A stretch of DNA of 64,000 nucleotides from a virus (Duplodnaviria > Caudoviricetes): IMG/VR virus record IMGVR_UViG_3300020042_006673, positions 953 through 64,952 of that record; one strand, written 5' to 3'. Below, one piece after another: positions 7,236 to 63,781 of the stretch (within the stretch, counting starts at the first letter, position 1; each line of letters starts with the position of its first letter). The translations under genes were made by a program, and so were the position numbers. The notes under the pieces were generated by a model. That model saw only the letters and a program-made list of their open reading frames with translations. It made no database searches and was not told where the DNA came from.

Positions 7236-8806
7236 TGTCTGTACAAAATGCTGTCCAACCTGAGAAGACTGTATCAGATCCAACAGCTTCCTATGAGTCT
7301 ATCAAACCTTTATGGGATAGAAGTAGAGCTGTCTGTAGTGGAGAGCGTTTTGTTAAGGATTATGATAATACGCTTGATACTCTGCACTTCTCGAATCTTC
7401 TGATTCCTTTTTCTCCAACTATGACATCTTCTCAGTATGAGTTTTATAAAGCTGAAGCTGAGTTACCGGGAATATCTGCACAATTCGGTAAGATGCTTGT
7501 TGGTGGATTGCTTAGAAAGAAACCTATTTTGAAGTTACCAGAAAGTGTCCCTAAAGACGGACTTAACTGGATAATGAATAACTTTGGTCAAGATGATGCA
7601 TCTCTCGCTGCCTTCTTAGATACTGCTCTTTGGGAAGAAATTCAAACAAGTAGAGCTTGGATCTACGTAGATTACCCTCGTGTACTTAATGCTGAACAGC
7701 TAACCCCAGAAGAGACTGAAGGACTGAAGCCGTATCCGATACTATGGCCTGCAGAAAATGTTATTAATTGGCGTACTAAGCTTAATTCAAAAGGTCAACG
7801 GGTCTTATCACAAATAGTAGTTAGGATATATGAAGAGTCATTCGCTAGGAATGAGTTTCATCCCGATCTTGTCGATACTGTTTATGTGCACGAGCTTGAC
7901 AATAATGAGCAATATCAGATTCGTAAATATCAAAAGGAAGTGCTTGAAGTTGCAATTCCAGTAATCAATGGTAAGAAGCAATCCAATACGAAAACTAATA
8001 AAGAGGTCTTCGTATTAAAAGAGACCAACACAAACATTCTAATGAATGGTGAACGCCTGTCAATTATCCCTGCTTGGCCTCTAAATGGTTCGATTGAAGT
8101 TATTGAACCGATGCTTACGCCAATCATTGACCGCGAGATTGCTCTTTACAATAAGATCAGTAGACGTAATCATCTGTTGTATGGTGCTTCTACTTATACT
8201 CCAGTTATTACATCTGACATGTCTGACGAAGACTTCGATGATATTGTGTCTGCAGGTCTTGGATCCTGGTTGCGATTAAAACAAGGTGACACGGCTACTG
8301 TTCTAGAAACCCCTACTGGCGCTTTGGCTGATATGGATCGAGCTATTGCTAGTACAGTAGAAGATATGGCTAAACTTGGTATTAGGATGTTGAGCCCTGA
8401 GACTGCACAATCAGGCGTAGCCTTAGATCTAAGGAACGCAGCACAGACAGCTCAACTAGGAACTTTTAATGTAAAGACCAGTAGTACGATGGCCGATGTC
8501 ATTGCTTTCATGCTGAAATGGCGGTATGATCTTGACATTAAGCCGGCTGATATTACATTTAGCTTAAGCGCTGACTTTAATCCGTCTCCTCTAGGCGAGA
8601 ACTGGTTAAGACTTATCACTGAATGGTATGAAGGTGGGCTTATTCCACGTTCTATTTGGATTGATATTCTAAAACACAATGATATTGTTCCTCCTGAGTA
8701 TAATGACGAGGTTGGTAGACAGGAAATTACTGAGAACGCATCGGAGACGATTGCTTCTAAAAATTTAGACTTTAAGAAGAACCTGGATTTAGAATCTAAT
8801 AACTAG
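7235..8806 (+). CDS. Portal protein (DUF4055-like)
   Basis: 523 aa between TerL region and MuF gene; motifs WDRSRAVCSGE, PYPILWPAENVINW, GLIPRSIWIDILK. Confidence 0.85.
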   Translation: MSVQNAVQPEKTVSDPTASYESIKPLWDRSRAVCSGERFVKDYDNTLDTLHFSNLLIPFSPTMTSSQYEFYKAEAELPGISAQFGKMLVGGLLRKKPILKLPESVPKDGLNWIMNNFGQDDASLAAFLDTALWEEIQTSRAWIYVDYPRVLNAEQLTPEETEGLKPYPILWPAENVINWRTKLNSKGQRVLSQIVVRIYEESFARNEFHPDLVDTVYVHELDNNEQYQIRKYQKEVLEVAIPVINGKKQSNTKTNKEVFVLKETNTNILMNGERLSIIPAWPLNGSIEVIEPMLTPIIDREIALYNKISRRNHLLYGASTYTPVITSDMSDEDFDDIVSAGLGSWLRLKQGDTATVLETPTGALADMDRAIASTVEDMAKLGIRMLSPETAQSGVALDLRNAAQTAQLGTFNVKTSSTMADVIAFMLKWRYDLDIKPADITFSLSADFNPSPLGENWLRLITEWYEGGLIPRSIWIDILKHNDIVPPEYNDEVGRQEITENASETIASKNLDFKKNLDLESNN

Positions 8807-8843: not shown

Positions 8844-11800
8844 ATGGCTGATAATGTAAATACTGCAATCTACGATACCCGTGTTGATCGTGCAGCAATG
8901 CTACGGTTGTTTGAAAGACGAGTGCAAGGTAAGGTTGAATTAGTGTTGAATGGTCATGCTGTTCGCACAGACGAGCTGATACGTGCTGCTAACCAATCTA
9001 ATAAAGGCTTTTTGGCATTAAGAGAGGCAATCGATGAGGACCTTCGAAATACCTATCGAGAGGTATATCAAGTCTCATCGAAGTCTCTCATTGATCTTGT
9101 AGGTGATCAGGTCTCTTACACGTATCAAGTATTGGATAATGCTATTGGTAAATTATGGAGAACAGAACGTCCTGGTCGTAGAGTTGCTGAAGAGTTGGTT
9201 TTAAATAAGCCACTACATGCTAATACCACATTAGCACAAGGTTGGTCAAATATTAGTGTTGGAGAAAGACGTAGACTAGAGAATATAATTCGGAAGGGAA
9301 TCGCGGATGGCAGTAGCGTAGAAGATATTGCTTTAATGGTAAGACGTGGAAATGTCCATAAGATTAGTCTACGACAATCTCAAGCTTTGGTTATCACATC
9401 CATCACCAGTGTAACAGCACAAGCCGATCATGAAGTGTATACAGCTAATAAGGATTCGCTTACGGGATGGCAATATGTTGCAGTGTTAGATAGCAGGACT
9501 ACTGATATTTGTGCGCATCGTGATGGTACTATTTATCCAATTGAAGACACTGAACATCTACCACCTGCTCATTTCCATTGCAGATCGACTACAATACCTA
9601 TTGTAAAGTCTTGGGATGACTTAGACAAGCTTGAAGGTGTGGCTCAAGTAAGACGTAGAAATCTTTCAGGTCTTAGTGCAAAACAAAAAGCATACTATGA
9701 CGGTCAGACACCCTTAAAAGAATCTTACGATCAATGGCTACGTAGACAGCCTACTGAGGTCCAGTTAAGACACCTTGGCGATACTCAGAAACTAGAGATA
9801 TTTAGATCAGGTCAACTTACATTAGATAAGTTTACTAATGCTGAAGGCAACTCTGTTGGTATTAGAGAGCTTTCAGCTATGACTATCCCAACTGTATCTG
9901 GAGATACTCGTAGGTTTGCCTTAGCTAAAGAGAAATTAGATACCATAAAGGTAGGTGCATCGACACCTGATGACTTTATTGGTGACACTGACTTGACTAA
10001 AGCCTTAAGTGAGTATTATGTACTACAAGCTGGTGAACTAAACGGTACCTTGTCTTTGACTAATTATCGTGGAGCTTTACTCCATAATAAGAAAGCAACA
10101 AAAGCTAGGGTATTGAGCACTTTACCTACTGAAGCTAATACTAGATTTAATCCTATAACAGGTCGTTATGAAGATACTCGTATATATCAACCCTCGCCTA
10201 TCACTCTAGAGAATACTCAGAGGTTAGTTAGAGAGAGTGAAGATTTATTGCCTAGAGATAAAGAGTTTATAACTAACTTTATTGATAGTTTAGAGTCTAA
10301 GATAAGTGTTAACGAACGTGCTGTGATATCTGAAAACCTTCGAATCCTTTTTACTAGGTATCGTAAGAATGGTGAAGTCTGGACTAACTTCAAAGCTGTG
10401 GCACAAAGCCAAATTAAGTTTGATATTGCAAACGTTTCAGACTACATTGAAACACAGATACGTAAAGATGCACATTTATTGCCTAAACTACTTCAAGATA
10501 ATTATATAGATCCTGTACTCGGTCCTGTTCAATTAGACGATCTTAGTAAGAACTTTATTAAAAATATTAAGGCAAAGAACAAGTGGGAAGATGCGGTAGC
10601 ACCTAAGATTGCTAAAGAGCTACGTGGATTCTTAGATTTAAATATTCCTATTAAGATAAGGTCTAGATTAAATGATAATTCATTACAAGAATTTTACCTA
10701 AAGTTTGCACATCGGTTAGCACTTGCAGATTCCCCTGATAGGGATCAGTTGGCAGTAGCTCTAGGTAGAGACCTCTACAACTTAGCTAATTATCGTGGTT
10801 CTCGAAACGAATGGTTCAACCTAGGAATTAAAATTCTAGAAAAAGCTGAGAAGAAAGGTTTTTACAAGTTAGAGACCTTTGGTACTCAAAAAAGACGTTT
10901 GAAAAGTAGGCTAGGCGGTAATTACTTTGGCCCATACTACGACACTTTTGCCGTGAACTTACGAATCACTGATCCTAGGATTCAAGAATACTCAAGGTTA
11001 ACTCGTAGTGTAGAGCTAGGACTTCGTGTAGCTGTCACCGATGCGAAGAATAGACTAGTCTTTAGGAAGGGCTATAAAACCTATTGGATAGATCGTGGTA
11101 TACTAGGCTATGAAGATACTCGAATCCCGATCACATCTACTGGCAGCTTCGGTGATTTTCCGACTGATCTTATTGATGATGATCTTGTTGACGCCTTAGA
11201 TTGGGCCTCAAAAGCTGAGTATAAGGTAGATCCTGATTTCTATGACTTTGCTACTAAGCTTTTAAAATTTGAAGATGATAAAGGTCGTGCTAAGTATTAT
11301 CATGGATTGAATCAATACAGGGCACACTTGCTGGAGCGTGGTGACTCTTATGAGCGATTGAAGGCTTTGGAGTGGCTACGCAATAGTGGCAAATCCTTCA
11401 GTAATCATCCTTTTTTAGATCATCGTGCTAGGATATATGATAGAGGTTTGATTGGGCCACAGTCTGGTGAAACCTTTAGACCTTTCTTAAGTACAGCTGA
11501 AGCTAAGAACTTTAGTGCTGAAGACTTCTTTAATTTACAAGATCAGATAGGCTCTTTCTTAGGCGGATTGAACGATTACTTTGAAGGCTTTAATAATTCA
11601 CTATCTATCTTAGGTCGTCAAAAGATCGCAGAGAAGTGGCGTAAGGATTTAGTTGAGATTGGTAATCATATTCGTCGTGGTAAACCTAACGATATTAGGG
11701 CTGTATTAGAGTCTAACTTATTGTCTAGGATTGATGGTGAAGATCAGGGAAAAGCCTTGCGATTGGCACTAGAGGTATCAAAAATTGACGAGTTCCTCCA

Positions 11801-14190
11801 GGGCAACTACTCCAAGGCGAACCTCGTTAAATTAAAGGAGTATAGAACCTCACTTGCCTTAGAGCAAGACGCATCCTCCTCTGGTGCACAGATAATTGCG
11901 TTAACCACAAAGAATAAGCAATTAGCTGAGTTGAGTAATGTAGTTCCTACGAATTATAAAAGAAGACTTTATGATGAGATTGCTGCATCTACTTTTAGAG
12001 ACCCTCGATTTATCAAACTAAATCAAAAGTTAGGGCTTACTGAGAAAGATTTAAGAAAGGCTGCAAAAGCTCAGAACTTAGTTACCTTTTATGGTGCAGG
12101 TGAACGTACCGGCATTATAAATGTTGAAGCTAAACTTTCTAAAGCATTAGGCAAGAACGAAGGTCTTCTTGTAGTAAAAGCATCTGACAGAGACACTGTA
12201 CTGTCTGAGATCGCTGCTAGAGCGGCACGTTATGAGAAGTTTGATAAAGAGACGTATCTTGAACTTAAAGCTCTTAGACAAGACGTTAAAGAGATTTTTA
12301 ATAAAGGTATAACTCCTGGTGATGATATTATCGAACAACTTTATTTTTTAGATCCTAAGACTCGAGAGTTGGTTGAAAAATTAACTAAGCAATATGATAC
12401 AGTTGTTACACCAGACGACTTTAAAGAGATTGCACAAATCTTTAGCGAAAACTTAAGGGTTCAAGTTCCTATTTTGAGAGACTTTACCAGGTTCTTTGGA
12501 AGACTTGCCGAAGATTTCCTTTCAAATGCCAAGCCGAGTCAATCTGATTTTGATTGGCCGGCTTTGATAAAGACTCAAATTAGAGGTACTAGAAAATCTG
12601 GTTATAGGCTTCCTAAAGCTATTAGTCGAATATTAGGACTTAAGGATGAACCGCTTTCAGAGAAATTCTTAAAACGAATCCCTGGATGGAATCCTGATGG
12701 TACTTTGTCAGAACTGCTATATGGTATAAGAGCACCTGAAGCAAGACGTACGGGCACTACTTTGTTCGGTATAAGCCCATTGCAATTGAAGACTTTAGGT
12801 GAGCTTGAAGTATTTACCCCTAACAAGTTACCTAAAAATTGGCCTAACGTTCCTTGGGTCAACTTTGACGGTAAAATTATTGAACAGAATTTTACACAAG
12901 TCTTTGAAGAGAAGTTAGTATATCTTGATAAAGATGGTCATCGAGTTATCAATATTCTCCAAGTTCCACAAAAGACTGATCCTACTTTCTGGGAAGAGTT
13001 AATTAACAAATCCGGAAAGATTAATGATATTGCTGATGTGAATAAAGCTAGGACTGCCTTTGCAGTTAACGGTGAAATCTGATTGCCGTTGTAAAATTCC
13101 GTGAATTCGGTGGATAACCTTAGGGTCAATACCGAGCCAAGCTTTGAGAGAACTCTCTTAGAAGGTGTAACGACTATTATGTAGGGCACAAGTGTGCTCG
13201 AAGCGCGGAACAGTGAAAACTGAAGATATAGTCTGATCTATATAGTAATATATAGCTGTTAATTATGGAGAGTATTAATGAAATTAGAACGCCTAAGGGC
13301 CCTTTTCTATTGCAAAGATGGTAAATGTTATAATCGCATCTCACGAGGTTCAGCTAAGAAAGACTTAGAGGCCGGTTATATAGCAGAGGATGGTTATAGA
13401 CGAGTTAGAATAGATGGTAGCTATCATTATATACATAGGGTGGTATGGATGCTTTCAACAGGAAAGGCGATTCCTGATGATTTGTTCATTGACCATATTG
13501 ATGGTAACAAACTCAACAATTCCATACAAAATCTAAGACTAGCGTCCTCCCTTGAAAATCAGTATAATAAATTTAGACAAACCAATGGCAGTAGCCAGTT
13601 TAAAGGTGTTTGGTTTGATTCTAAGAAAGACTGTTGGAAGGCTTCAATTCGTTTAAAAGATCGACGATTCTATATAGGTCAATTTAACACAGAAATTGAA
13701 GCTGCTATTGCCTATGATAAACTTGCAATAGAAACTCAAGGTACGTTTGCCAAACTCAATATTTTAACGGGGTTGCCTAACGAACAACCCGAACAAAACG
13801 AATCATTCCAACGATGCAACACTCGTTAAGCAGTTCCATTTATGGGGTAAGAAAAACGGTGTACCTACCTCTACTATCCATGATGCGTTCTTTACGAATG
13901 CATCCGAGATGGTTAGGGCTAGAAATGCACTAAGACAGCTTTATGCAAATACCTTGAAACGTAATGTAATCAAGTCTACCTTAGACGAGATGCGTAGCCG
14001 AGGTTTGCCCAAAGAACTTTATAATAAATACTTAGAAGAAGCTATCGCGATAGGCCTGATTCCTGTTCCAGGCAAGTCTATTGTAGGTGGCCGTGTATTA
14101 ACTGAAAAAGATATTTTAACAGATGCCGATATCTTAGCTAATATTCCTGAAGGTTTCAAGAATAATTATGCATGGTACGGTGTCAATTAA
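8844..14190 (+). CDS. MuF/SPP1-gp7 head morphogenesis domain fused to a T7-like single-subunit RNA polymerase; spliced join(8844..13073,13801..14190), 1539 aa
   Basis: N-terminal MuF motifs WQYVAVLDSRTTDIC and PPAHFHCRST. RNAP motifs DHRARIY (aa 859), A EQDASSSG (D1009), B RKAAKAQNLVTFYG (K1075, Y1083); after splicing, AVNG^NHSNDATL and motif C TIHDAFF (D1438). Exon 2 is in frame with track ORF 13909..14190. Confidence 0.9.
13074..13800 (+). ncRNA. Group I self-splicing intron (IA-like), 727 nt
   Basis: 5' exon ends in U, paired with IGS GCCGUU 13085-90; P10 UGAUU/AAUCA; P3 13097-103/13204-10; P4 13107-12/13130-35; P7 GACUA 13172-76/UAGUC 13229-33; J8/7 GAAGAUAUAGUC; P8 CAGU-GAAA-ACUG; P9 13238-55; terminal G 13800. 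Confidence 0.93.
13278..13829 (+). mobile_element. Intron-encoded HNH-AP2 homing endonuclease
   Basis: HRVVW...IDHIDGNKLNNSIQNLR (HNH_3 type) plus AP2 domain SQFKGVWFD...WKASI...GQFNTEIEAAIAYD; GGAG RBS; lies in the intron P9 region. Confidence 0.9.
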
Positions 14191-55141: not shown

Positions 55142-55840
55142 ATGAGTACTGCATTGAAACAAGGTTTTGTAACTGAAGATGGTCAAGTTTTCACCAACCG
55201 TAACGATGCTCTGGAGCATATTCGTAAACCGCAGGTGATGTCCGTTTTGACCGTTCTATGCAATAAAGATGCCGATCTAGCATCGTTCTTGTATGAGAAG
55301 CGTGAAGATATTGCTGCTGCTTATGATACTGGTAAGATCCCGCGTGTTACTAAATCGCAACGTAAGGCCTTGGAAAAAGCCTTGGAGTATGCTGTTAGTT
55401 TGAATGATCCTAAACTGGAATTCATCAACAAGCACTATGAAGATATTTCTGCAAGTTTCCGTTGGCCTACCGTCTCCCGTCTGAAACCTGAAGAGCATGC
55501 TGGTGCAATTCAAGAAGCTTTGGCCAAATTGGTTGATGGTAACACTGAGTTGGCTGTTTGGATCATTAACAATAAAGATCAACTCTTGGCTGCATATGAG
55601 ACCGGTGTCGAGAAACGTGAAGTCAATCCGAAAGCTATGGAAAAGCTGGCTGAATACCGTGCACAACGTGCCGCTGACGCTGAGCGTATGCGTAAGGAAG
55701 ACGAGGCTGTCAAAGACGATCCTGTTGCTAAAGAGAAATTGGCAAAAGCTCGTGCTCAAGCTAAAGTCAAAGCTGCAGAAGAAAAAGCTGCTGCAAAGGC
55801 AGCTGAAGCCGCTGCTAAAGAAGCTGCTAAGGCTAAGTAA
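55142..55840 (+). CDS. Probably highly expressed hypothetical protein with Ala/Lys-rich C-tail
   Basis: GAGG RBS; capsid-like codon bias (CGT, GGT, GCT); AKAKAAEEKAAAKAAEAAAK tail. Confidence 0.85.
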   Translation: MSTALKQGFVTEDGQVFTNRNDALEHIRKPQVMSVLTVLCNKDADLASFLYEKREDIAAAYDTGKIPRVTKSQRKALEKALEYAVSLNDPKLEFINKHYEDISASFRWPTVSRLKPEEHAGAIQEALAKLVDGNTELAVWIINNKDQLLAAYETGVEKREVNPKAMEKLAEYRAQRAADAERMRKEDEAVKDDPVAKEKLAKARAQAKVKAAEEKAAAKAAEAAAKEAAKAK

Positions 55841-55864
55841 GTCTTGTGAGAGATTAAGAGAAAC

Positions 55865-56160
55865 CACTGCCTGAAAAGGGTGTCATTTCTCTGCTCTAAG
55901 GGCTTCGTCAATGTGCCTTGCTAATGTACAATGATCTCCTCCCCTGTGATTCTCCCCACAGGTCTTTTCTTCATAGTATATTAGCAAAATGACACGTCCC
56001 TGCTCCTCTTTAGACTATATGTCTAAACAGCTGGCAGGCCGTCTTTGTATCTATTAAGACACTCTTTGAGTTGCTTGATAGATTAGTGACTGATAGGATC
56101 AGACGCTTAGCGTTATTTCTATCACATATCTGTTATCCATTATGGCTCTAACAGAATGTA
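55865..56160 (+). ncRNA. Candidate structured non-coding RNA
   Basis: Nested stems 55880-88/55987-95, 55920-34/55971-85, 55943-48/55957-62, 56009-15/56021-27, 56091-98/56117-24, 56129-35/56149-55 in a ~500-nt gap with no credible ORF. Confidence 0.5.
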
Positions 56161-56347
56161 TTCTAAACTTATGCATTTATGCATTTGTTTAAATGGCTCT
56201 GAACTGATTGCCAAGTAAAATATGCCCTCGGCATACTACTAAAAATCATCTGCCCTATTATTGTCTTCGGACTTTAGTAGGGCATCAAGTTTTCGCCCTG
56301 CTGATATCCCCGGATATTGGTGGGGCTTTTTTACGAAAAGGTGATCT

Positions 56348-58288
56348 ATGTATAAAGTACTTATTACTACGTTCGGTTATCGTGAGACAAATCATGGTAC
56401 AGGCTGTGCAATTCATACTCAAACTGTACATTTTAAGGAAGAGGCAGAGGCCATACTTGCAGCTAAAATCGTAAATGAGAATGCCTATACAAATACAAGT
56501 TTAATTCGATCTGCCGTTTGTTTATTCTGATGGAAAATCTTTATAAAGGAACTATAGGAAAAGCTACAGGAAGCCCTTTTGAAATTGGTGCTAGACTGTG
56601 TACAAGGGATGGTCGGAGAATAGGAAATGCTGTTACGATTGGGATAATCGATATTTTGAAATTTAATAGATATGAGATGTTAGCTATTGTATTGACAGAT
56701 GCAGGCATGACTCTTGAAATGACAGCTGAGGATCTTAATGACTTATTCTTTGCACCGGATAGTTTAGTAGAAGTTCAGACAATAGGACGACACTTTGAAG
56801 GGAGGTCTAGTTAGATGCAACTTGCACGTTATCAGTCTAGTCGTATAATCTTCGTAATTTGTAATAAGCTTGAGTTCCAAGGGTTGCCACCTGATTGTAA
56901 AGTAACGGAGTTGCGGGATGATGGTGAAAAGCTTCTCGTAGAACTCGATAGAAATGTGAAGAATCTAGTTGCATTGGATATTTGTGGGCTATCAATACCG
57001 ATATCAGAGCTCTCTAGAAAAGAACCTACATGGATTGTTAACTAAAGGAGTTGTTATGATAAATCAAGGAGCATTACCTTGTTCGATGCTTTGCAAGGGT
57101 TGTGAATCTGGTGATTTAAATGTACAGAAGTGTGATGCAGGTGTAGTATCGCGTCTCATAGCTAAAAGAGACGATCTAGCAGAGTATGATCATAAACACA
57201 GTTTGAGATCCAAATAATTGATTGCATTAATGAAATTTTAGGAGAATGAAATGATGAACAAAGTTACATATTTCTGCATTAGTATTGACTCAAAAATGAC
57301 ACAGGGAAATACCGTTGAGGAAGCTTATCAGACGATGGTCGCTAAAGTCGGTGCAGTAGATTTTAATACTTGCCAATTTTATAGAGCAAGTCCTGTGGCT
57401 GTAAACCTTGTGGTCGAAGGCGCTTAAATGGCAACATACGTGACATTTGGATCAGCGCATCACCATGTCATTAACGGTAAGGTGCTAGACCATAATTGTG
57501 TTGCTGTTATTAAGTCAATTTCTGCGGAGGAGGGCCGAAGAGAAGCCTTTAGACTCTTTGGTAATCAATTTAGTTTCGAGTATTGGGAGTCTGAAAAATT
57601 ACCTGATATGTCGTATTACTCACGAGGCCTGATTCATTTGGAGGGATAACATGAAGATGTATATTGGACTTTTTATGGTTTGCCTTATTTTTCTAGGTGC
57701 AGTCAAATTAATGGATGACGCCGATTGGGCAAAGTTTAAGAAGAAGCATAACTGTGTATTTAAGGGTTATGATCAAATGGACGGTTATTTAACCAAGAGT
57801 ATCTGGGAATGTGACAATCTAGAAGTCCGAAATTTACGGCATAAATAAGGAACCTTTATGTATTTGATCTATACGCACATTGGTATCAAGATATATTTGG
57901 CAGGCTACGATCCTGAAGACTGTTTCGATCCGTCTTTTGTCTATGTGGTTCAATATAACGGAACACTTTATAAGGTACTTGCGAGACGTTCAATAAGTGG
58001 CATTTCCTGTAGACTATATAGAGCTGATAATGTACAGATTAAGGAAGAGTTCTTCCCTGGCCTTAATTCGTTCAGTACAGCTTGCGCAGAAATCGTGAAG
58101 CTATAATGGAACCATCTTTTGGATTTGTCATGTCTATAGTAATTATTACGGGGATAGCTATTGTATTACCACCCTTAGTCCCTAAAGACCCCAATAGTAA
58201 GTTGTATCAACTCATTGATGCCGGCAGGGTTGGACTTTTATTTTTTACAGTAGGGCTAGTACTTGCAAGTGTTTTTAAGTTATATTAA
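56348..58288 (+). other. Cluster of small hypothetical CDS (56348-56530, ~56530-56814, 56815-57045, ~57056-57217, 57428-57649, 57651-57848, 57858-58106, ~58106-58288)
   Basis: Coupled + strand ORFs with RBSs; several hydrophobic. Confidence 0.55.
57428..57649 (+). CDS. Small hypothetical protein, paralog of the frameshifted gene at 62522
   Basis: VTFGSAHHHVINGK...VIK...GR.EAF..FG...RGLIHLE aligns with the 62522 product. Confidence 0.7.
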   Translation: MATYVTFGSAHHHVINGKVLDHNCVAVIKSISAEEGRREAFRLFGNQFSFEYWESEKLPDMSYYSRGLIHLEG

Positions 58289-58297
58289 AATATCAAC

Positions 58298-58944
58298 GGG
58301 CCTGTAGCTCAGTGGTAAGAGCAAGCGACTCATTAAGGCGTAGTGATACGTTATTGTGCACCACCGAAAAATGCATTGGTAGTCAGAAAGATACACCTTA
58401 AGTATCCTCCTAATATGACATGTAACTGGAGCATATTGCTGGCGTAACAGTACAACCGAAAGGCGGTAAAGTAATAAGTAGACAAAAATTATCTGTATCG
58501 ACAATAGCCGGAGTTTGCATTAAATGTGAGAGTGAGACTCACATGTCTTCCGGATACTTATTAGGTGAATTTTCTCAAAGTCGGCGAACGCTAAAGAATA
58601 TAGGAAAGCCAGAGGCTTCGTAATTCCTATTCTAATACTAGGCTGTAAGTATTGGATGCTGCCAACGCCGAGCCAAACCTGTCGAAAGACCAACAAAATG
58701 CTGTATGAGTAGGATGTACAGAGGAAGGTGTAGAGACTGTATGGGAAATACCTAAGTCCACAAACCGATGATTCTTTCGAGAAACTAGTTGTTTAGACGA
58801 CAAGGTAAAGACACAGTCCAGACCACGAACATATGCAGTCCTAGAGCGCACCGAGAGCGTGGATAAAAGTCTAGGCATATGGCGTCGAAAGACGAAGTGG
58901 TACGAATCGCCTGGTCATAGGTTCAAATCCTATCAGGCCCACCA
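58298..58944 (+). tRNA. tRNA-Ile2(CAU), split: exons 58298-58333 and 58905-58944
   Basis: Joined exons give a 76-nt cloverleaf GGGCCTG...CTCATAA...CAGGCCC-A-CCA, very similar to E. coli ileX; has the C4:G69/C5:G68 pairs used by TilS. Confidence 0.9.
58334..58904 (+). ncRNA. Group I intron (Azoarcus/IC3-like core), 571 nt, no ORF
   Basis: Inserted 3' of anticodon CAU; P1 UCAU/GUGA 58343-46; P3 58571-77/58742-48; P4 UCGGCG 58581-86/CGCCGA 58666-71; GAAGGUGUAGAGACU; P7 58735-40/58813-18; terminal G 58904. Confidence 0.9.
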
Positions 58945-58968
58945 ATTTATTACATAAAGGAGAAATAA

Positions 58969-59271
58969 ATGAATTTTGGAGAGGCACTTAACCTTTTAAA
59001 GTTTGGATACAAGGTTCGTCGAACTGGATGGAATGGTAAGGGCCTTTGGCTCGAATTACAAGTACCCGATGAACATAGCAAGATGACTTTACCTTACATC
59101 TTCATCAGCTACCCAGATACACCAGCGAGTGAGACTGCGCCAGCTAGCCATATAGGCGCGCGTGTGCCTTGGCTAGCTAGTCAGACTGATGTATTAGCGG
59201 AAGACTGGATTGTGGTAAATGAGTGGGTTCCTTCGCCTGTACCACTTCCGGATGACGGTATTCCTTTTTAA
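58969..59271 (+). CDS. DUF2829-family protein
   Basis: MNFGEALNLLK.G.KVRRTGWNGKG...PWLASQTDVLAEDW. Confidence 0.85.
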   Translation: MNFGEALNLLKFGYKVRRTGWNGKGLWLELQVPDEHSKMTLPYIFISYPDTPASETAPASHIGARVPWLASQTDVLAEDWIVVNEWVPSPVPLPDDGIPF

Positions 59272-59280
59272 TAATAATAA

Positions 59281-59357
59281 CTGCCTATAGCTCAATTGGA
59301 TAGAGCAACAGCCTTCTAAGCTGTAGGCTACAGGTTCAATTCCTGTTAGGCAGGCCA
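59281..59357 (+). tRNA. tRNA-Arg(UCU)
   Basis: CTGCCTA/TAGGCAG acceptor, D-loop GGA (A20), ACAGC-CTTCTAA-GCTGT anticodon arm, encoded CCA; argU-like. Confidence 0.95.
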
Positions 59358-59379
59358 TTTCAACTATAGGGATCTTAAA

Positions 59380-62300
59380 ATGAGTATTGAAGGTAAGCTT
59401 AAAACGCCAAGTGACCCGGTATTATTTCTTATAGGCGTAGTAGGTTGGTTAATGGGTATGGCAATAGCCAAAGGTTTTTGGCCTATGCTGATTGCAACCG
59501 TCTTTCCACCATTTGCCTGGTTTGTTGTGATAGATAAGATGTTACAAATAGCAGGATGGATATGAACGATGAAAATATTGATTGACAGAGTCAAACACGT
59601 GCCGACAGATGCACTGCCTGATCAGGTGATGTTTTATTACATGCACGATTGCCACGTCTTTTCACGTCTGTACGGCACCACGATTGATGACGTATTAGCT
59701 ATCGCCGATATAATGGCGAAGGAAAGCCCATGCGGAATGCTTTGCCCACCGATATTGTTGTTGGGTGACAAAGAATTGTACCGACTTGAAGAAGTGGCGC
59801 ACGCCCCATGCTTGTACCATCCACAAAAGTGGGAAAATGGAAAGATTTTATGGCGTAGAGAGTGCGAATCCGACAAAAACATAATTCGACTGATGTCTTC
59901 TAAGTTGACTGACAGTCAAGAGAAAGGCCAGTGATCCTAATAAATACCTAAAGGACTAAAATGAAACCATTACATAGTAAATTCAAAAGACTTAGTCGCT
60001 GCCCTTGTTGTCAAACTGTATATTCTGCAAGTGGCATGCGTAAGAAGAATGATGGCAAGAGTGCTGCAAGGCAAGCTTATAAAAGGGATCTTAACAAAGA
60101 TCTAGGAAAGGATTAGTATGTATTTAATCGTGTATCCTGATTTACGTACCGTCAAGGCTAAGGTTGTACTTCAGACCGAATTCGCGAAAGTGATGTCTGA
60201 TCCTAAATCAATGATTATCTTAGATATTACTGTTCCTGAAACACCCTTACGATTTAATAAAATCAATGAATCATTGGGGCTATTTGAGACTATCGAAGAA
60301 TAAGGATAATTTATGGCAAACAGAATATGGATAGAGGCCTTTGGTTTGATCTAGATCAACTGATTGCTAATTTTAAGGAGACTAGCTGAAATGCCTAATA
60401 TCTCAATACCTCGATTGGCGGAATTAGAACGTGCCGAGAAACGTTTAATTGATTTGGAACAGCAAAAAACTATTGCATGGCTAGGGGTGGCCTTAGGCAA
60501 TGCGCTAGCAATTACTCTAGCTAACAAACCATACAGCAAATGGAGCTCAAACCAAAAAATGCTTTTGCATGCTGTAGCCGGTAATGCAACAACGGCTTTG
60601 GCGTTATATATTGACTCTCTGCCGAAAGACTAAACAATAAGATAGGTCTCTTTGAAGAAATTGAGGAGTAGTTTTTAATGGATAGATATCAAATTGCCCA
60701 AATGGCTTGCGTGTATGCTGAATTAGCAAGAGTCTTTGGGATGCAGGCCGAAAATATGAAACGAAATCAGCGTGGTGAGTCCATAGTTTATACAGAGGAT
60801 GCATTTAATGCTTCTGCATCACGATTGGAGTCGCTGTCGATCAAGATCTTAAATGGTGATTAAGATAAGAAGGGTATAATGGGTATGTTTGATGAAGTTG
60901 TCGTATCTTGCCCTGTATGCAAGAATACTGTTGTATTTCAAAGCAAAGCTGGTCCTTGCATATTTAGGGCATATAATGTCCATGAAGTGCCAATAGCAAT
61001 TGCGTTATCACTGGAGGGCCATAAAGAGGAGTGCTCTGGTTGTGGCGCTGTTATGGCGCTTGTCAGATATAACCCAATGGATACGGTTTCAATGAAAGCT
61101 ATTACTGAGTAAGGAACTTTTATGAACGTTCTTAAGCAAGCAAATGCTTTAAATACGACGGATCGTATAAAATTTGTTGATGAATTACAAGTTAGTGACG
61201 TCGTGGCCGTTATGACCCTTACATATAAGACTACTGAAGGTATTTATGTGGAAGGTTTTACTGCAGATGGGATACATTTATCAGATGGCAAGATCTTCAA
61301 TCTGGACGGTGTTTTAGAGGTAGGTCCGTATTGTACTAAGATACTGTTTAAGCCTGACGTAGAGTCTCGTGAAGAATATCTATCCAGGAGACTTAGAAAT
61401 AAAATAAATCAGTTTAGATGGACTGACTTAACGTCAAATCAGTTAGATGCCGTACTTAAATACGCCGAATCTAAACTCATACGGCAACAAACGTTGCCTG
61501 AAAAGGAATAGTATGCAATTGTTTAAGCCCTATTGTACGAATGTCAAGATCATAATTCTTGACAAAGAAGATGAAAGTAAATACTTAGACTATCTTCTAT
61601 ATATGTCTAATGATATTATGTGCTTGAAGCCTGAGATTCAGGACTTTGCGGAAGCCTTGAGAGATAAATTAAACGGATCTTAAGGACACATTATGAGAGG
61701 AATTATGAAAAGTCGTAGGAGAACTGATAGCCTAATAAACTGGTCGAAGCGCCTGTTAAACACGCTACTTAGTCAGTTCAATCATCCTTGTAAAGAATGT
61801 GCAGTTATTCAAATTCCATTTTGGAAATCTCGTTGTAGCTTTTGTGGTCCAGGTGAAGGTCGGGTAAAGTCATGACATTAGGTGACAAAGATACAAATTT
61901 CGGTAGTATGTTTAGATACGAGTCGACATGGGGTACTGACATACCTCCTGCTTTATTTCCACCTGTGATCTTGGAAGGTGAAATTGGCGATGGCAGGGCT
62001 GGCCTTTATCTGAGAACATTTAACATCATTAGAGTAACACCTAAGGGTGTTTGGATAGCCTTAGAGTATAACTACAAAGGCGAGGTAGCGAAGAAGAAGT
62101 TCATCTTAGCAAATTCCAGAAAGAAATACGCTTGTTTTACTTTGGAAGAAGCAAGGGTCTCGTTTCTTATTAGGAAACAAAGGCAACTAGCTATTCTTAA
62201 GCATCAAATGGAGATAACAGTATTCTCAATAGAGGCCATCCTTAAGGAGATGTGATGGCACGTTTTAGGGTTGATCGAAATAAATCGCGTACGAAAGTAC

Positions 62301-62521
62301 CCTGTGGTATGAACTCTATTATCTATGTTGGAGATCAATTCAATGTAGCCTACGCTATATTCAAAGAATCGTTTCCTGGAATTGATGAATGGGGTCAAGT
62401 CGATAAGCTGTACTGTGTAACATTGGCTGAATGGAGTAGTTTTAAAAAGGATTATATAGTCAGTTATTGTAAAGTTGTCGGACAAGGTAGACTACCCACA
62501 AACACAGAAAGAGAATCGTAA
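59380..62521 (+). other. Cluster of about 12 small hypothetical CDS (e.g. 59380-59565, 59569-59934, 59961-60116, 60118-60303, 60678-60863, 60879-61112 Zn-ribbon, 61122-61511, 61513-61683, 61693-61875, 61872-62255, 62252-62521)
   Basis: Coupled + strand ORFs, most with AAGGA/GGAG RBS; no confident functions. Confidence 0.55.
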
Positions 62522-63212
62522 ATGGAAATTTTTTTGTAACATTCGGGCAAGACCACATTCACACTGTGAACGGAAAGACCTTTGATAAAGATTCTATTTG
62601 CGTCATAAAGGCGGAGTCCTACAAGGCCGGGAGATAGCTTTGGAAGCTTTCGGCACTGTATTTGCGTTCTTTTACTCAGAAGGTGATTGGGAGCCGGAAA
62701 ACACGGCACTGTTTCCACGAGGCTTTATTGAGTTAGAAGACGCGGTGGAGGAAGCCCCAGTGGACGTGATTGTCGCAGAGCTTACCGAACAGACTGAGGA
62801 TAAGCTCGACAAGCTGCGACAGGAACAGAGCGCCTTATGGGAGTTCTCCACAAATGGGGAAGTTAGTCGACTGATAGACGTCGCCAGGGCACGGCTTAAA
62901 GAGTGCTTCGGGGAAAGCTGTGAAGTGTACAACCAGAGTGTGTCACAGCGTTATTACGGGGGACCGCGTTTTTATGTAATGCTTTTTGCATCAGCCTCTT
63001 ATGAAGCTCATCTGGAACATTGCGATGACAGCTCTTTTGTGACACTGGATGCCTTAAGCACCACCTGGGACATGGAAAATCAAGATCTTGTCTGTGTCCA
63101 AATCTTAAGCGAATTGCCTAAAGAAGCGCTTTCGGCGCTAGTAGACCTCGGGAAACTGAAAACGATTGTACAGCAGGCTTCGACTTACCACACAATCTCA
63201 TGCAGCTTTTAG
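62522..63212 (+). pseudogene. Doubly frameshifted gene; N-terminal domain is a paralog of 57428-57649
   Basis: ATG 62522 hits TAA after a T7 run; the next frame reads VTFGQDHIHTVNGKTFDKDSICVIKAESY; the third frame (track ORF 62598) continues GREIALEAFG...RGFIELE. Confidence 0.7.
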
Positions 63213-63250
63213 GAACCTAAATACCAAACATTTCTAAATGGAGAATAAAT

Positions 63251-63781
63251 ATGATCTACATGACGCTTAATCAAATTCGGGAATTTTCACCCTGTCAATT
63301 GGGATGGGTAACTCTGCTTACCTCGTTAGGGAAAAATAAAGCAGACGACGAACCTATACCGTTATCTTGGATAATCAAAAGTAACGGTATCTGTGATGCT
63401 ATTTGGTGTTTCCGTGTTAACTGGTTTGAGCATAGAGATCTTTATATGGCTTTTTTGAACGGCTGTGTAATACGTGCTGATGAGTATGCTGCTATTTATG
63501 GTGCTGACGCAGCTTACACTTCTGGTGCTGCTGTTTATGCTGATGATGCTGCCAAAGATGCTGCTGCTGCTGTTTATGCTGATGATGCTGCCAAAGCTGC
63601 TGCTGCCGCAGATGCTGCCGCAGATGCTGCTTATGCTGCTGCTGATGCTGCTTATGCTGCTGCTGCTGCTGCTTATGCTTATGATGTTACTGATGCTACT
63701 GCTACTGATGCTACTGCTGAGCGCAGAATGCAGGAAACACACCTTTTTCAATTACTCGAGGCTCATGAAACGGTCTCTTGA
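63251..63781 (+). CDS. Hypothetical protein with Ala/Asp/Tyr low-complexity repeats
   Basis: GGAG RBS; TLNQIREFSPCQLGW N-terminus; DAAYAAA-type repeats. Confidence 0.8.
   Translation: MIYMTLNQIREFSPCQLGWVTLLTSLGKNKADDEPIPLSWIIKSNGICDAIWCFRVNWFEHRDLYMAFLNGCVIRADEYAAIYGADAAYTSGAAVYADDAAKDAAAAVYADDAAKAAAAADAAADAAYAAADAAYAAAAAAYAYDVTDATATDATAERRMQETHLFQLLEAHETVS

Follow-up and report, generated by a model that had tools for sequence, protein, structure and literature searches.

Does a bacteriophage genome carry a tRNA gene that is split by a self-splicing group I intron and, if so, which tRNA does it encode and to which known introns is the intervening sequence related? The question is raised by positions 58298-58944 of a 64,000-nucleotide (nt) stretch of IMG/VR virus record IMGVR_UViG_3300020042_006673 (hereafter the window, meaning the whole stretch of DNA that was analysed), where an earlier note had proposed a tRNA-Ile2(CAU) gene interrupted by an enlarged version of the Azoarcus tRNA-Ile intron. 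Our analysis leads us to conclude, with a probability of roughly 80%, that this locus is a phage tRNA gene, most likely for tRNA-Ile2, which is split by an enlarged, IC3-like group I intron of the bacterial tRNA type with an extended P2 domain and ordinary self-splicing. New here are the 571-nt size, the protein-free build and the conserved P2 extension of an otherwise known kind of element. A review from 2014 placed all phage group I introns then known in protein-coding genes, despite the many tRNA genes that phages carry (PMC3984707), and in the literature searched we found no later report of a group I intron in a phage tRNA gene.

A split tRNA(CAU) gene and its group I intron

The two tRNA halves lie on the plus strand and are 571 nt apart, exactly as first described. 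Exon 1 (58298-58333, 36 nt) contains the 5' strand of the acceptor stem, the D arm, the 5' strand of the anticodon stem and the loop nucleotides CU followed by CAU, and thus ends in CUCAU with U58333 as the -1 nucleotide. Exon 2 (58905-58944, 40 nt) starts with AAUCGCC and supplies A37 and A38, the 3' strand of the anticodon stem, the variable loop, the T arm, the 3' strand of the acceptor stem, A73 and an encoded CCA (58942-44). The joined exons form a 76-nt cloverleaf with anticodon CAU that ARAGORN calls as tRNA(cat). Because group I introns demand a U at position -1 and a G as the last intron base, the junctions are fixed as CUCAU/UAAGG...GGUACG/AAUCGCC (splice sites marked by slashes), which places the intron (58334-58904) between tRNA positions 36 and 37. 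The suspicion that standard scanners may miss such a gene proved right: neither default ARAGORN nor the Rfam tRNA model calls the split gene, and both detect the uninterrupted tRNA-Arg(UCU) gene next to it (59281-59357, plus strand). With introns allowed, ARAGORN does recover 58298-58944 and the 571-nt intron but places the latter 3 nt too far 5', and it is because of this shift that the anticodon is read as ACG. The intron is also free of recognizable protein-coding capacity, as had been noted, since its longest plus-strand open reading frame (ORF) covers 34 amino acids (aa) and the three minus-strand ORFs of 58-83 aa are without a match in Pfam.

A group I catalytic core was found by cmscan, the Infernal check suggested earlier, with the Rfam model Intron_gpI (RF00028) aligning over its full length to 58520-58838 at 43.8 bits (E 9.6e-10). 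Since this score falls below the curated cut-off of 50 bits, the whole-window scan at gathering level does not report the locus; the model mis-assigns P1 and P2 and is penalised by the long insertions in P5, P6 and P8. The core (58568-58821), as delimited by the Rfam alignment, by complementarity and by compensatory changes in related introns, consists of P3 (58571-76/58743-48) and P7 (58735-39/58814-18), both of which are complementary and show compensatory changes in relatives, P4 (58581-86/58666-71; complementary), a branched P5 arm (about 58587-58665), a P6 arm (about 58672-58727) in which a GAAA loop caps P6a, P8 (58749-53/58803-07; complementary) with a receptor-like CCUAAG 5' strand and a UUCG tip, and J8/7 (58808-13). 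It is followed by the P9 domain (58822-58904), in which P9 (58822-26/58897-901) encloses a long P9a hairpin (58830-58881) and P9b (58883-86/58891-94, with GAAA between the strands), and which ends with the omega-G at 58904. The four core segments listed in the earlier note are all present, at 58575-88, 58663-76, 58724-38 and 58807-21. Its description of extended P5, P8 and P9 arms with GNRA loops is accurate as regards the extra hairpins but only in part as regards the loops, given that GAAA caps P2c, P6a and P9b, whereas the P8 tip is UUCG and the tips of P5 are not GNRA.

Every core helix of the 571-nt intron is intact, as are U-1, the omega-G, P1 and P10. Guanosine-binding P7 apart, in which the last pair is G-C, A-U or U-A within the family described below, compensatory changes also occur in P3, P9 and P9b across the family alignments, and P9 together with P9b is kept in 12/12 members (one mismatch) despite eight different P9b sequences.

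The enlarged intron family and its P2 domain

The closest relatives of the window intron are about ten enlarged introns of 463-907 nt in uncultured phage and metagenome contigs. We searched for them with patterns that required a long P5 and P6 and then with patterns taken from the peripheral region, and recovered the family, which is rare, from about seven IMG/VR viral and eight metagenome contigs, some of which represent the same locus or are partial. Its members occupy tRNA-Leu(UAA), tRNA-Arg(UCU) and tRNA(CAU) genes as well as some non-tRNA sites. Introns with the guide GAG interrupt tRNA-Leu(UAA) between U34 and A35 (L119, equal to L251; 563 nt), tRNA-Arg(UCU) between U34 and C35 on a 250-kb viral contig (L124; about 613 nt) and a further tRNA-Leu(UAA) gene (L252; about 907 nt); L253 and L249, the latter again with GAG, lie in partial tRNA-Leu contexts. 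A 463-nt intron with the guide GUG (L122/L254, on a 98.8-kb viral contig) sits in a tRNA(CAU) gene at the same site as in the window. All share with the window intron the core, P9b and the same P2 extension (blocks A and B and the P2.1 arm), and L254 additionally the tRNA type and site, but the arms vary in sequence and length, and most family sites are U34/A35 of other tRNAs with GAG as guide. We found no family member from a cultured phage, and no description of an extension-bearing family of this kind in the literature searched. The terminase type of the window was not found in five viral records that carry family members, four of which are incomplete, and this gives a weak indication that the phages carrying the family are unrelated to the window phage.

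Throughout the family, the trinucleotide just 5' of a conserved CACCACCG covaries with the end of the 5' exon (CAU/GUG twice, CUU/GAG four times), and the bases ahead of this trinucleotide complement the start of the 3' exon. This covariation between guide and exon is good comparative evidence that the family introns splice. On the strength of it, the internal guide sequence of the window intron is AUUGUG (58353-58358), and GUAGUG (58341-46), which had been considered as the guide, was dropped. The assigned guide forms P1 between exon CAU and GUG (58331-33/58356-58), with a U58333.G58356 wobble at the splice site, and P10 between AUU and AAU of the 3' exon (58353-55/58905-07).

All enlarged family members have in common an extension of P2 (58359-58567 in the window, defined by the family alignment and pair counts), which adds a three-way junction and a second arm to an ordinary P2 GAAA hairpin. 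P2 (58359-62/58564-67) continues into P2a (58363-66/58464-67), a junction AAAAA (58367-71), P2b (58372-78/58448-54), beyond which follow a 3 x 4 internal loop and a variable stem from 58382-86/58439-43, and the mini-hairpin P2c (CC-GAAA-GG, 58456-63); the P2.1 arm is closed by 58472-80/58555-63. Compared with the plain P2 hairpin of the small Gemmatimonadales introns described below, the P2 of the family can be read as the same GAAA hairpin with an additional arm in the 5' strand (P2b) and another in the 3' strand (P2.1); it retains the GAAA loop, whose partner is presumably the CCUAAG receptor-like P8. In an alignment of 12 members, in which 24 model pairs were scored, 97.2% of the cells were paired, as opposed to 24-41% when the 3' partners were slid; eight pairs had changed on both sides, a count reached in 0/500 shuffles, and the covariation score was 0.199 compared with 0.098 for shuffles. 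The P2.1 closing helix measures 6-10 base pairs (bp) in 10/11 members for which the flanking anchors were found and 4 bp in the divergent L120, and its sequences mostly differ. Blocks A and B, by contrast with what helices need, are conserved in sequence well beyond pairing, including 28 identical nt between the window and L119. Exact motif scans found the extension blocks in 0/120 bacterial and 0/117 viral loci outside the family, among the matches listed. The extension (58200-59050 searched against Rfam at E up to 10) gave chance-level matches only, with no riboswitch or other family, and it had no match in the cultured-phage collection even at E 1. The long helix 58394-407/58552-67 pointed out in the earlier note can form, and is part of the minimum-free-energy fold of the single sequence, but it is not conserved and competes with the fold backed by covariation; relatives lack its 5' partner and use its 3' strand for P2.1 and P2, and we therefore rejected it as the native fold. 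Most likely, the added arms stabilise the fold, and the degree to which their sequence is conserved would also allow for a protein or ligand as partner of the extension.

How close is this intron to the Azoarcus type? A core-pattern search of viral sequences returned at least 117 contigs, 28 of which ARAGORN placed in tRNA genes with introns of 186-260 nt plus one of 773 nt. A stricter pattern applied to bacteria returned at least 120 loci, among them 67 tRNA-Leu(UAA) introns of 216-332 nt, mostly not cyanobacterial, and 30 tRNA(CAU) introns of 188-248 nt, mostly from Burkholderiales and Rhodocyclaceae; a single bacterial intron exceeded 350 nt. The bacterial sample was pre-selected by the core pattern, the Rhodocyclaceae and Burkholderiales tRNA(CAU) introns stand in for the Azoarcus sequence, and the comparisons that follow, scored over four conserved core blocks (maximum 112), hold among the matches listed. 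The Azoarcus tRNA-Ile intron is 205 nt long and its pre-tRNA-Ile self-splices in vitro (PMC13168695). Introns of its type resemble the window intron in their insertion immediately 3' of CAU within the anticodon loop, a P1 of three base pairs (CAU/GUG) next to P10, identical strings in P4 and P6 (CGCCGAGCCAA) and in P7 (AAGGUGUAGAGACU), GAAA loops on P2 and P9 and the lack of an ORF (PMC13168695). Likewise, the bacterial tRNA(CAU) introns share the junction CUCAU/...G/AAUCC and the GUG guide with the window, and those inspected were beta-proteobacterial. On the other hand, introns of the Azoarcus type are compact (about 190-250 nt, without peripheral domains) and chromosomal, while the window intron, at 571 nt, is 2.8 times longer, has two extra P2 arms and extended P5, P6, P8 and P9, and resides in a phage. 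Moreover, its core blocks match those of the 30 bacterial tRNA(CAU) introns with scores of at most 65/112.

Higher scores were obtained elsewhere. The enlarged family reached 73-103, most members scoring at least 80, and the best-scoring small relatives were tRNA-Gln(CUG) introns in Gemmatimonadales metagenome-assembled genomes (L130 and L226; 235 nt in L226 by ARAGORN), at 86-88/112. Their P9/P9b tail is nearly the same as that of the window, and their P2 hairpin CACCACACCG-GAAA-CGGUGUG resembles an un-expanded form of the window P2/P2a/P2c, but they are bacterial, lack the extension arms and occupy another tRNA and insertion point. The bacterial tRNA-Leu(UAA) introns have an IC3-like core, the same type of J8/7 string and a location in the anticodon loop, and their U34/A35 site is the one used by L119 and L252; they differ from the window intron in their smaller size, the lack of a P2 extension, the site and scores of at most 73/112. 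The original assignment to the Azoarcus type consequently stands for the insertion point 3' of CAU and the CAU/GUG P1, but not for closest kinship (at most 65/112, against 86-88 and 73-103). Nor is the intron type restricted to beta-proteobacteria, as had been assumed: the bacterial matches listed include others, and group I tRNA introns of this type have been reported beyond that class (10.1101/2020.01.27.920355).

From the observed anatomy, homology, covariation and tRNA resemblance we infer the following course of splicing and modification. The precursor would be transcribed as one RNA, in which exon CAU pairs with guide GUG to form P1 with its U.G wobble; free guanosine would then attack after U58333, the AAU of the 3' exon would pair with the AUU adjoining the guide to form P10, and the exon 3'-OH would attack after omega-G58904. 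The expected products are a 76-nt tRNA with a CCA end and the freed intron of 571 nt, and host TilS would convert C34 to lysidine, so that the tRNA reads AUA. Compared with the Azoarcus intron of 205 nt, the window intron is longer by 366 nt, and this surplus is structured RNA rather than coding sequence: two inserted arms (P2b and P2.1) split the ordinary P2 GAAA hairpin, and P5, P6, P8 and P9 are each enlarged by further hairpins. As in small relatives, the GAAA tetraloops of P2c and P9b probably find their docking sites in P8 and P5, which are receptor-like, with the added arms wrapped around the core and stabilising it. The mature tRNA and its neighbour tRNA-Arg(UCU) would between them decode ATA and AGA, both of which are heavily used in this phage of 40.5% G+C.

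Identity of the tRNA and alternative explanations

The spliced tRNA is Ile2-like, in agreement with the initial proposal, and probably represents tRNA-Ile2 (CAU, lysidine) rather than tRNA-Met. Exon 1 matches E. coli genes labelled tRNA-Ile with 91.7% identity over its 36 nt, and the spliced tRNA shares 64-66/76 positions with an E. coli gene annotated tRNA-Ile (RefSeq) that has a CAT anticodon, compared with 56/77 for the elongator tRNA-Met gene metT. The anticodon stem (AGCGA/UCGCC) is identical to that of the E. coli tRNA-Ile(CAT) gene and unrelated to that of metT, and C4-G69 and C5-G68 occur in both the spliced tRNA and the Ile gene. An initiator tRNA does not fit, since G1-C72 is paired, and the anticodon stem is without three consecutive G-C pairs. 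C4-G69, C5-G68, C29-G41, U12-A23, A37, A38 and A73, which we take to be identity elements of E. coli Ile2, TilS and IleRS, are all present. ARAGORN labels the spliced gene tRNA-Met(cat), and the sole phage-database match to exon 1 likewise carries a tRNA-Met annotation; the former goes by the anticodon alone, however, and tRNA-Met is the default label for any CAT anticodon. An intron as described within an elongator tRNA-Met gene is hence unlikely in view of the identities, the anticodon stem and the presumed Ile2, TilS and IleRS elements, and also of codon usage: ATA makes up 28% of the phage Ile codons (18.2 per 1000, above ATG), and the partner tRNA-Arg(UCU) is the other classic rare-codon tRNA. 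As the phage uses both ATA and AGA (34% of Arg codons) heavily, an AUA decoder beside an AGA decoder makes sense.

Several points weigh against a split, self-splicing tRNA-Ile2 gene. The Intron_gpI score stays under the curated gathering threshold of 50, the P2b helix of the window copy has one C.A mismatch, and the case for Ile2 is built on similarity to genes of E. coli and on presumed identity elements. An intron of such a size may, moreover, fold in vivo only with the help of a protein. The low Rfam score and the P2b mismatch, together with the unusual size, would also suit a dead gene whose intron has decayed or has grown by junk insertions, so that it no longer splices and the tRNA is not made. 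We nonetheless consider this highly improbable: all core helices, U-1, the omega-G, P1 and P10 are intact, the exons are undamaged, and in phage contigs that are unrelated to one another the added arms have been conserved through compensatory changes, a sign of selection rather than of junk. Equally hard to sustain, if by a hair less so, is the recent capture of an Azoarcus-type intron from a beta-proteobacterial host to which it would point. The insertion site, the CAU/GUG P1 and the P4, P6 and P7 strings are indeed those of Burkholderiales and Rhodocyclaceae tRNA(CAU) introns, but the core-block scores of these introns lie below those of the tRNA-Leu and Gemmatimonadales tRNA-Gln introns and of the enlarged family, the extension blocks occur in none of the bacterial or other viral loci listed, and the nearest cultured phages infect Ruegeria and Pelagibacter. 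A less remote, though still doubtful, explanation is a real intron whose splicing depends on a phage or host protein, such as a maturase or chaperone, that binds the conserved extension. The conservation of blocks A and B beyond helix needs would accord with it, as would the frequent need of large group I introns for protein helpers (PMC3984707). Yet, among the ORFs scanned, neither the intron nor its surroundings encode a candidate protein, and the family occurs in phages without the window terminase type, so that any partner would have to be widespread.

Phage context, family copies outside tRNA genes and implications

The phage origin of the DNA is borne out by its gene content. The window derives from a tailed phage with all genes on one strand, which encode a large terminase, a portal, a head-morphogenesis protein and a major head protein as well as a single-subunit RNA polymerase, a family A DNA polymerase and a primase-helicase. 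Its nearest cultured phages are the Ruegeria phages DSS3_PM1 and DSS3_VP1 (54% identity in the large terminase, TerL), EBPR siphovirus 1 and the Pelagibacter phages Kolga and Aegir; Ruegeria and Pelagibacter are alpha-proteobacteria, and the kinship is distant. A blastn search of the whole locus against the cultured-phage collection found nothing beyond a tRNA match of 37 nt. Contrary to what had been supposed, the intron does not point to a host, given that its core is closer to other introns than to beta-proteobacterial ones and that the nearest cultured phages, distant as they are, infect alpha-proteobacteria. The further idea that the intron persists without an endonuclease of its own holds insofar as it contains no endonuclease ORF, but this is the rule for bacterial tRNA introns and not a peculiarity. 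With regard to a homing endonuclease nearby, six ORFs of 121-232 aa in 55142-63781 had no Pfam match, most smaller ORFs lying outside that scan, and the one HNH gene of the window lies at a distance of 45 kb, next to another group I intron. This second intron (13030-13255), which passes the Rfam threshold with 69.8 bits, is located where the 1412-aa head-morphogenesis ORF (8844-13082) ends and is followed by an ORF with HNH_3 and AP2 domains (13278-13829), a typical homing endonuclease.

Around the split gene, a sigma-70-like promoter candidate (TTGCAA-17-TAAAAT, 58263-58291, plus strand) ends 7 nt ahead of the tRNA 5' end. It is a weak match to the consensus, such sites are rarer in the region than in shuffled sequence, and the phage encodes its own RNA polymerase. 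About ten small plus-strand ORFs of 58-98 aa (55874-58288) lead up to the tRNA pair; two of them searched against Pfam and one against PHROGs gave no significant family match. A possible structured RNA had been flagged earlier at 55865-56160. The split tRNA is closely followed by a 100-aa ORF (58969-59271) that is Tad2-like (Thoeris anti-defence 2, PF11195; E 6.6e-22) and also matches phrog_1048 and phrog_872.

Some copies of the family ribozyme (L125:10161-10910, L123:9348-9995, L247:265-967 together with L248, L259 around 8356-8621 on the minus strand, and a second copy in L252) sit outside tRNA genes and have the guides GCC, GGG or GAG, with the complementary short strings GGU, CCU and CUU upstream and/or just downstream. 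GCC and GGG match GGU and CCU located upstream and/or in a conserved 3' tail, YUGGUAAA. The L247 copy is intergenic between two ORFs, and the L125 and L123 copies lie 14-25 nt upstream of intact tRNA(CAU) and tRNA-Arg(UCU) genes. The second L252 copy is on the reverse strand (about 1505-2283 of the reverse complement) directly after a GC-rich hairpin and inside a U-run (GUCCACGACGUGGACGCGCUU/...G/UUUUCUUU), and because of this position its splicing would rebuild the look of an intrinsic terminator. In L246:1-1628 (metagenome contig JGI20216J20342_1119287), one family ribozyme and the junction UUUGGU/AAAUAGCC make up a unit that recurs with a perfect 619-nt period (no mismatch among the 1009 positions compared), a pattern typical of circular molecules or tandem arrays. 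The non-tRNA copies may be introns with tiny exons, 3'-end-processing ribozymes or relics, and together with the repeated unit of L246 they hint at mobility or at other ribozyme uses. Two further observations concern copies within tRNA genes. The P5 insertion of the tRNA-Arg(UCU) intron (L124:6614-7349) contains a D-loop-like AGUUCAGUUGGUAGAA and a T-arm-like GGGUUCGAGCCCC followed by CCA, and gives the impression of a tRNA-like module inside an intron that is itself inside a tRNA; ARAGORN did not call a tRNA in this stretch. In L254:755-1100, some 160 nt ahead of the split tRNA(CAU), a group I J8/7-P7-like string AGUCCAGACAAC may be part of a further intron.

It is conceivable, although rather improbable, that the P2 extension marks a distinct lineage of ORF-less phage ribozymes with abilities beyond scaffolding. 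One possibility under that reading is that a ligand or protein gates splicing and so sets the time at which the AUA-reading tRNA becomes available; another is that the ribozyme moves from one RNA site to the next by reverse splicing. The latter, if true, would explain why the same ribozyme is found in the anticodon loops of three tRNAs at two positions, at non-tRNA sites, in seemingly free-standing copies next to intact tRNA genes and in a perfect 619-nt circle or concatemer.

As regards the split tRNA-Ile2 gene itself, its significance is in part practical. Since default tRNA finders miss split genes of this kind, the tRNA repertoires of phages are undercounted, in this case by the AUA decoder. 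In addition, a protein-free tRNA intron of 571 nt, nearly three times the size of the model Azoarcus ribozyme, lets one study, in a case provided by nature, how a minimal ribozyme acquires peripheral RNA domains, and with the family to which it belongs one can ask cleanly whether a change of target through the 3-nt guide allows ORF-less introns to spread from one tRNA anticodon loop to another.

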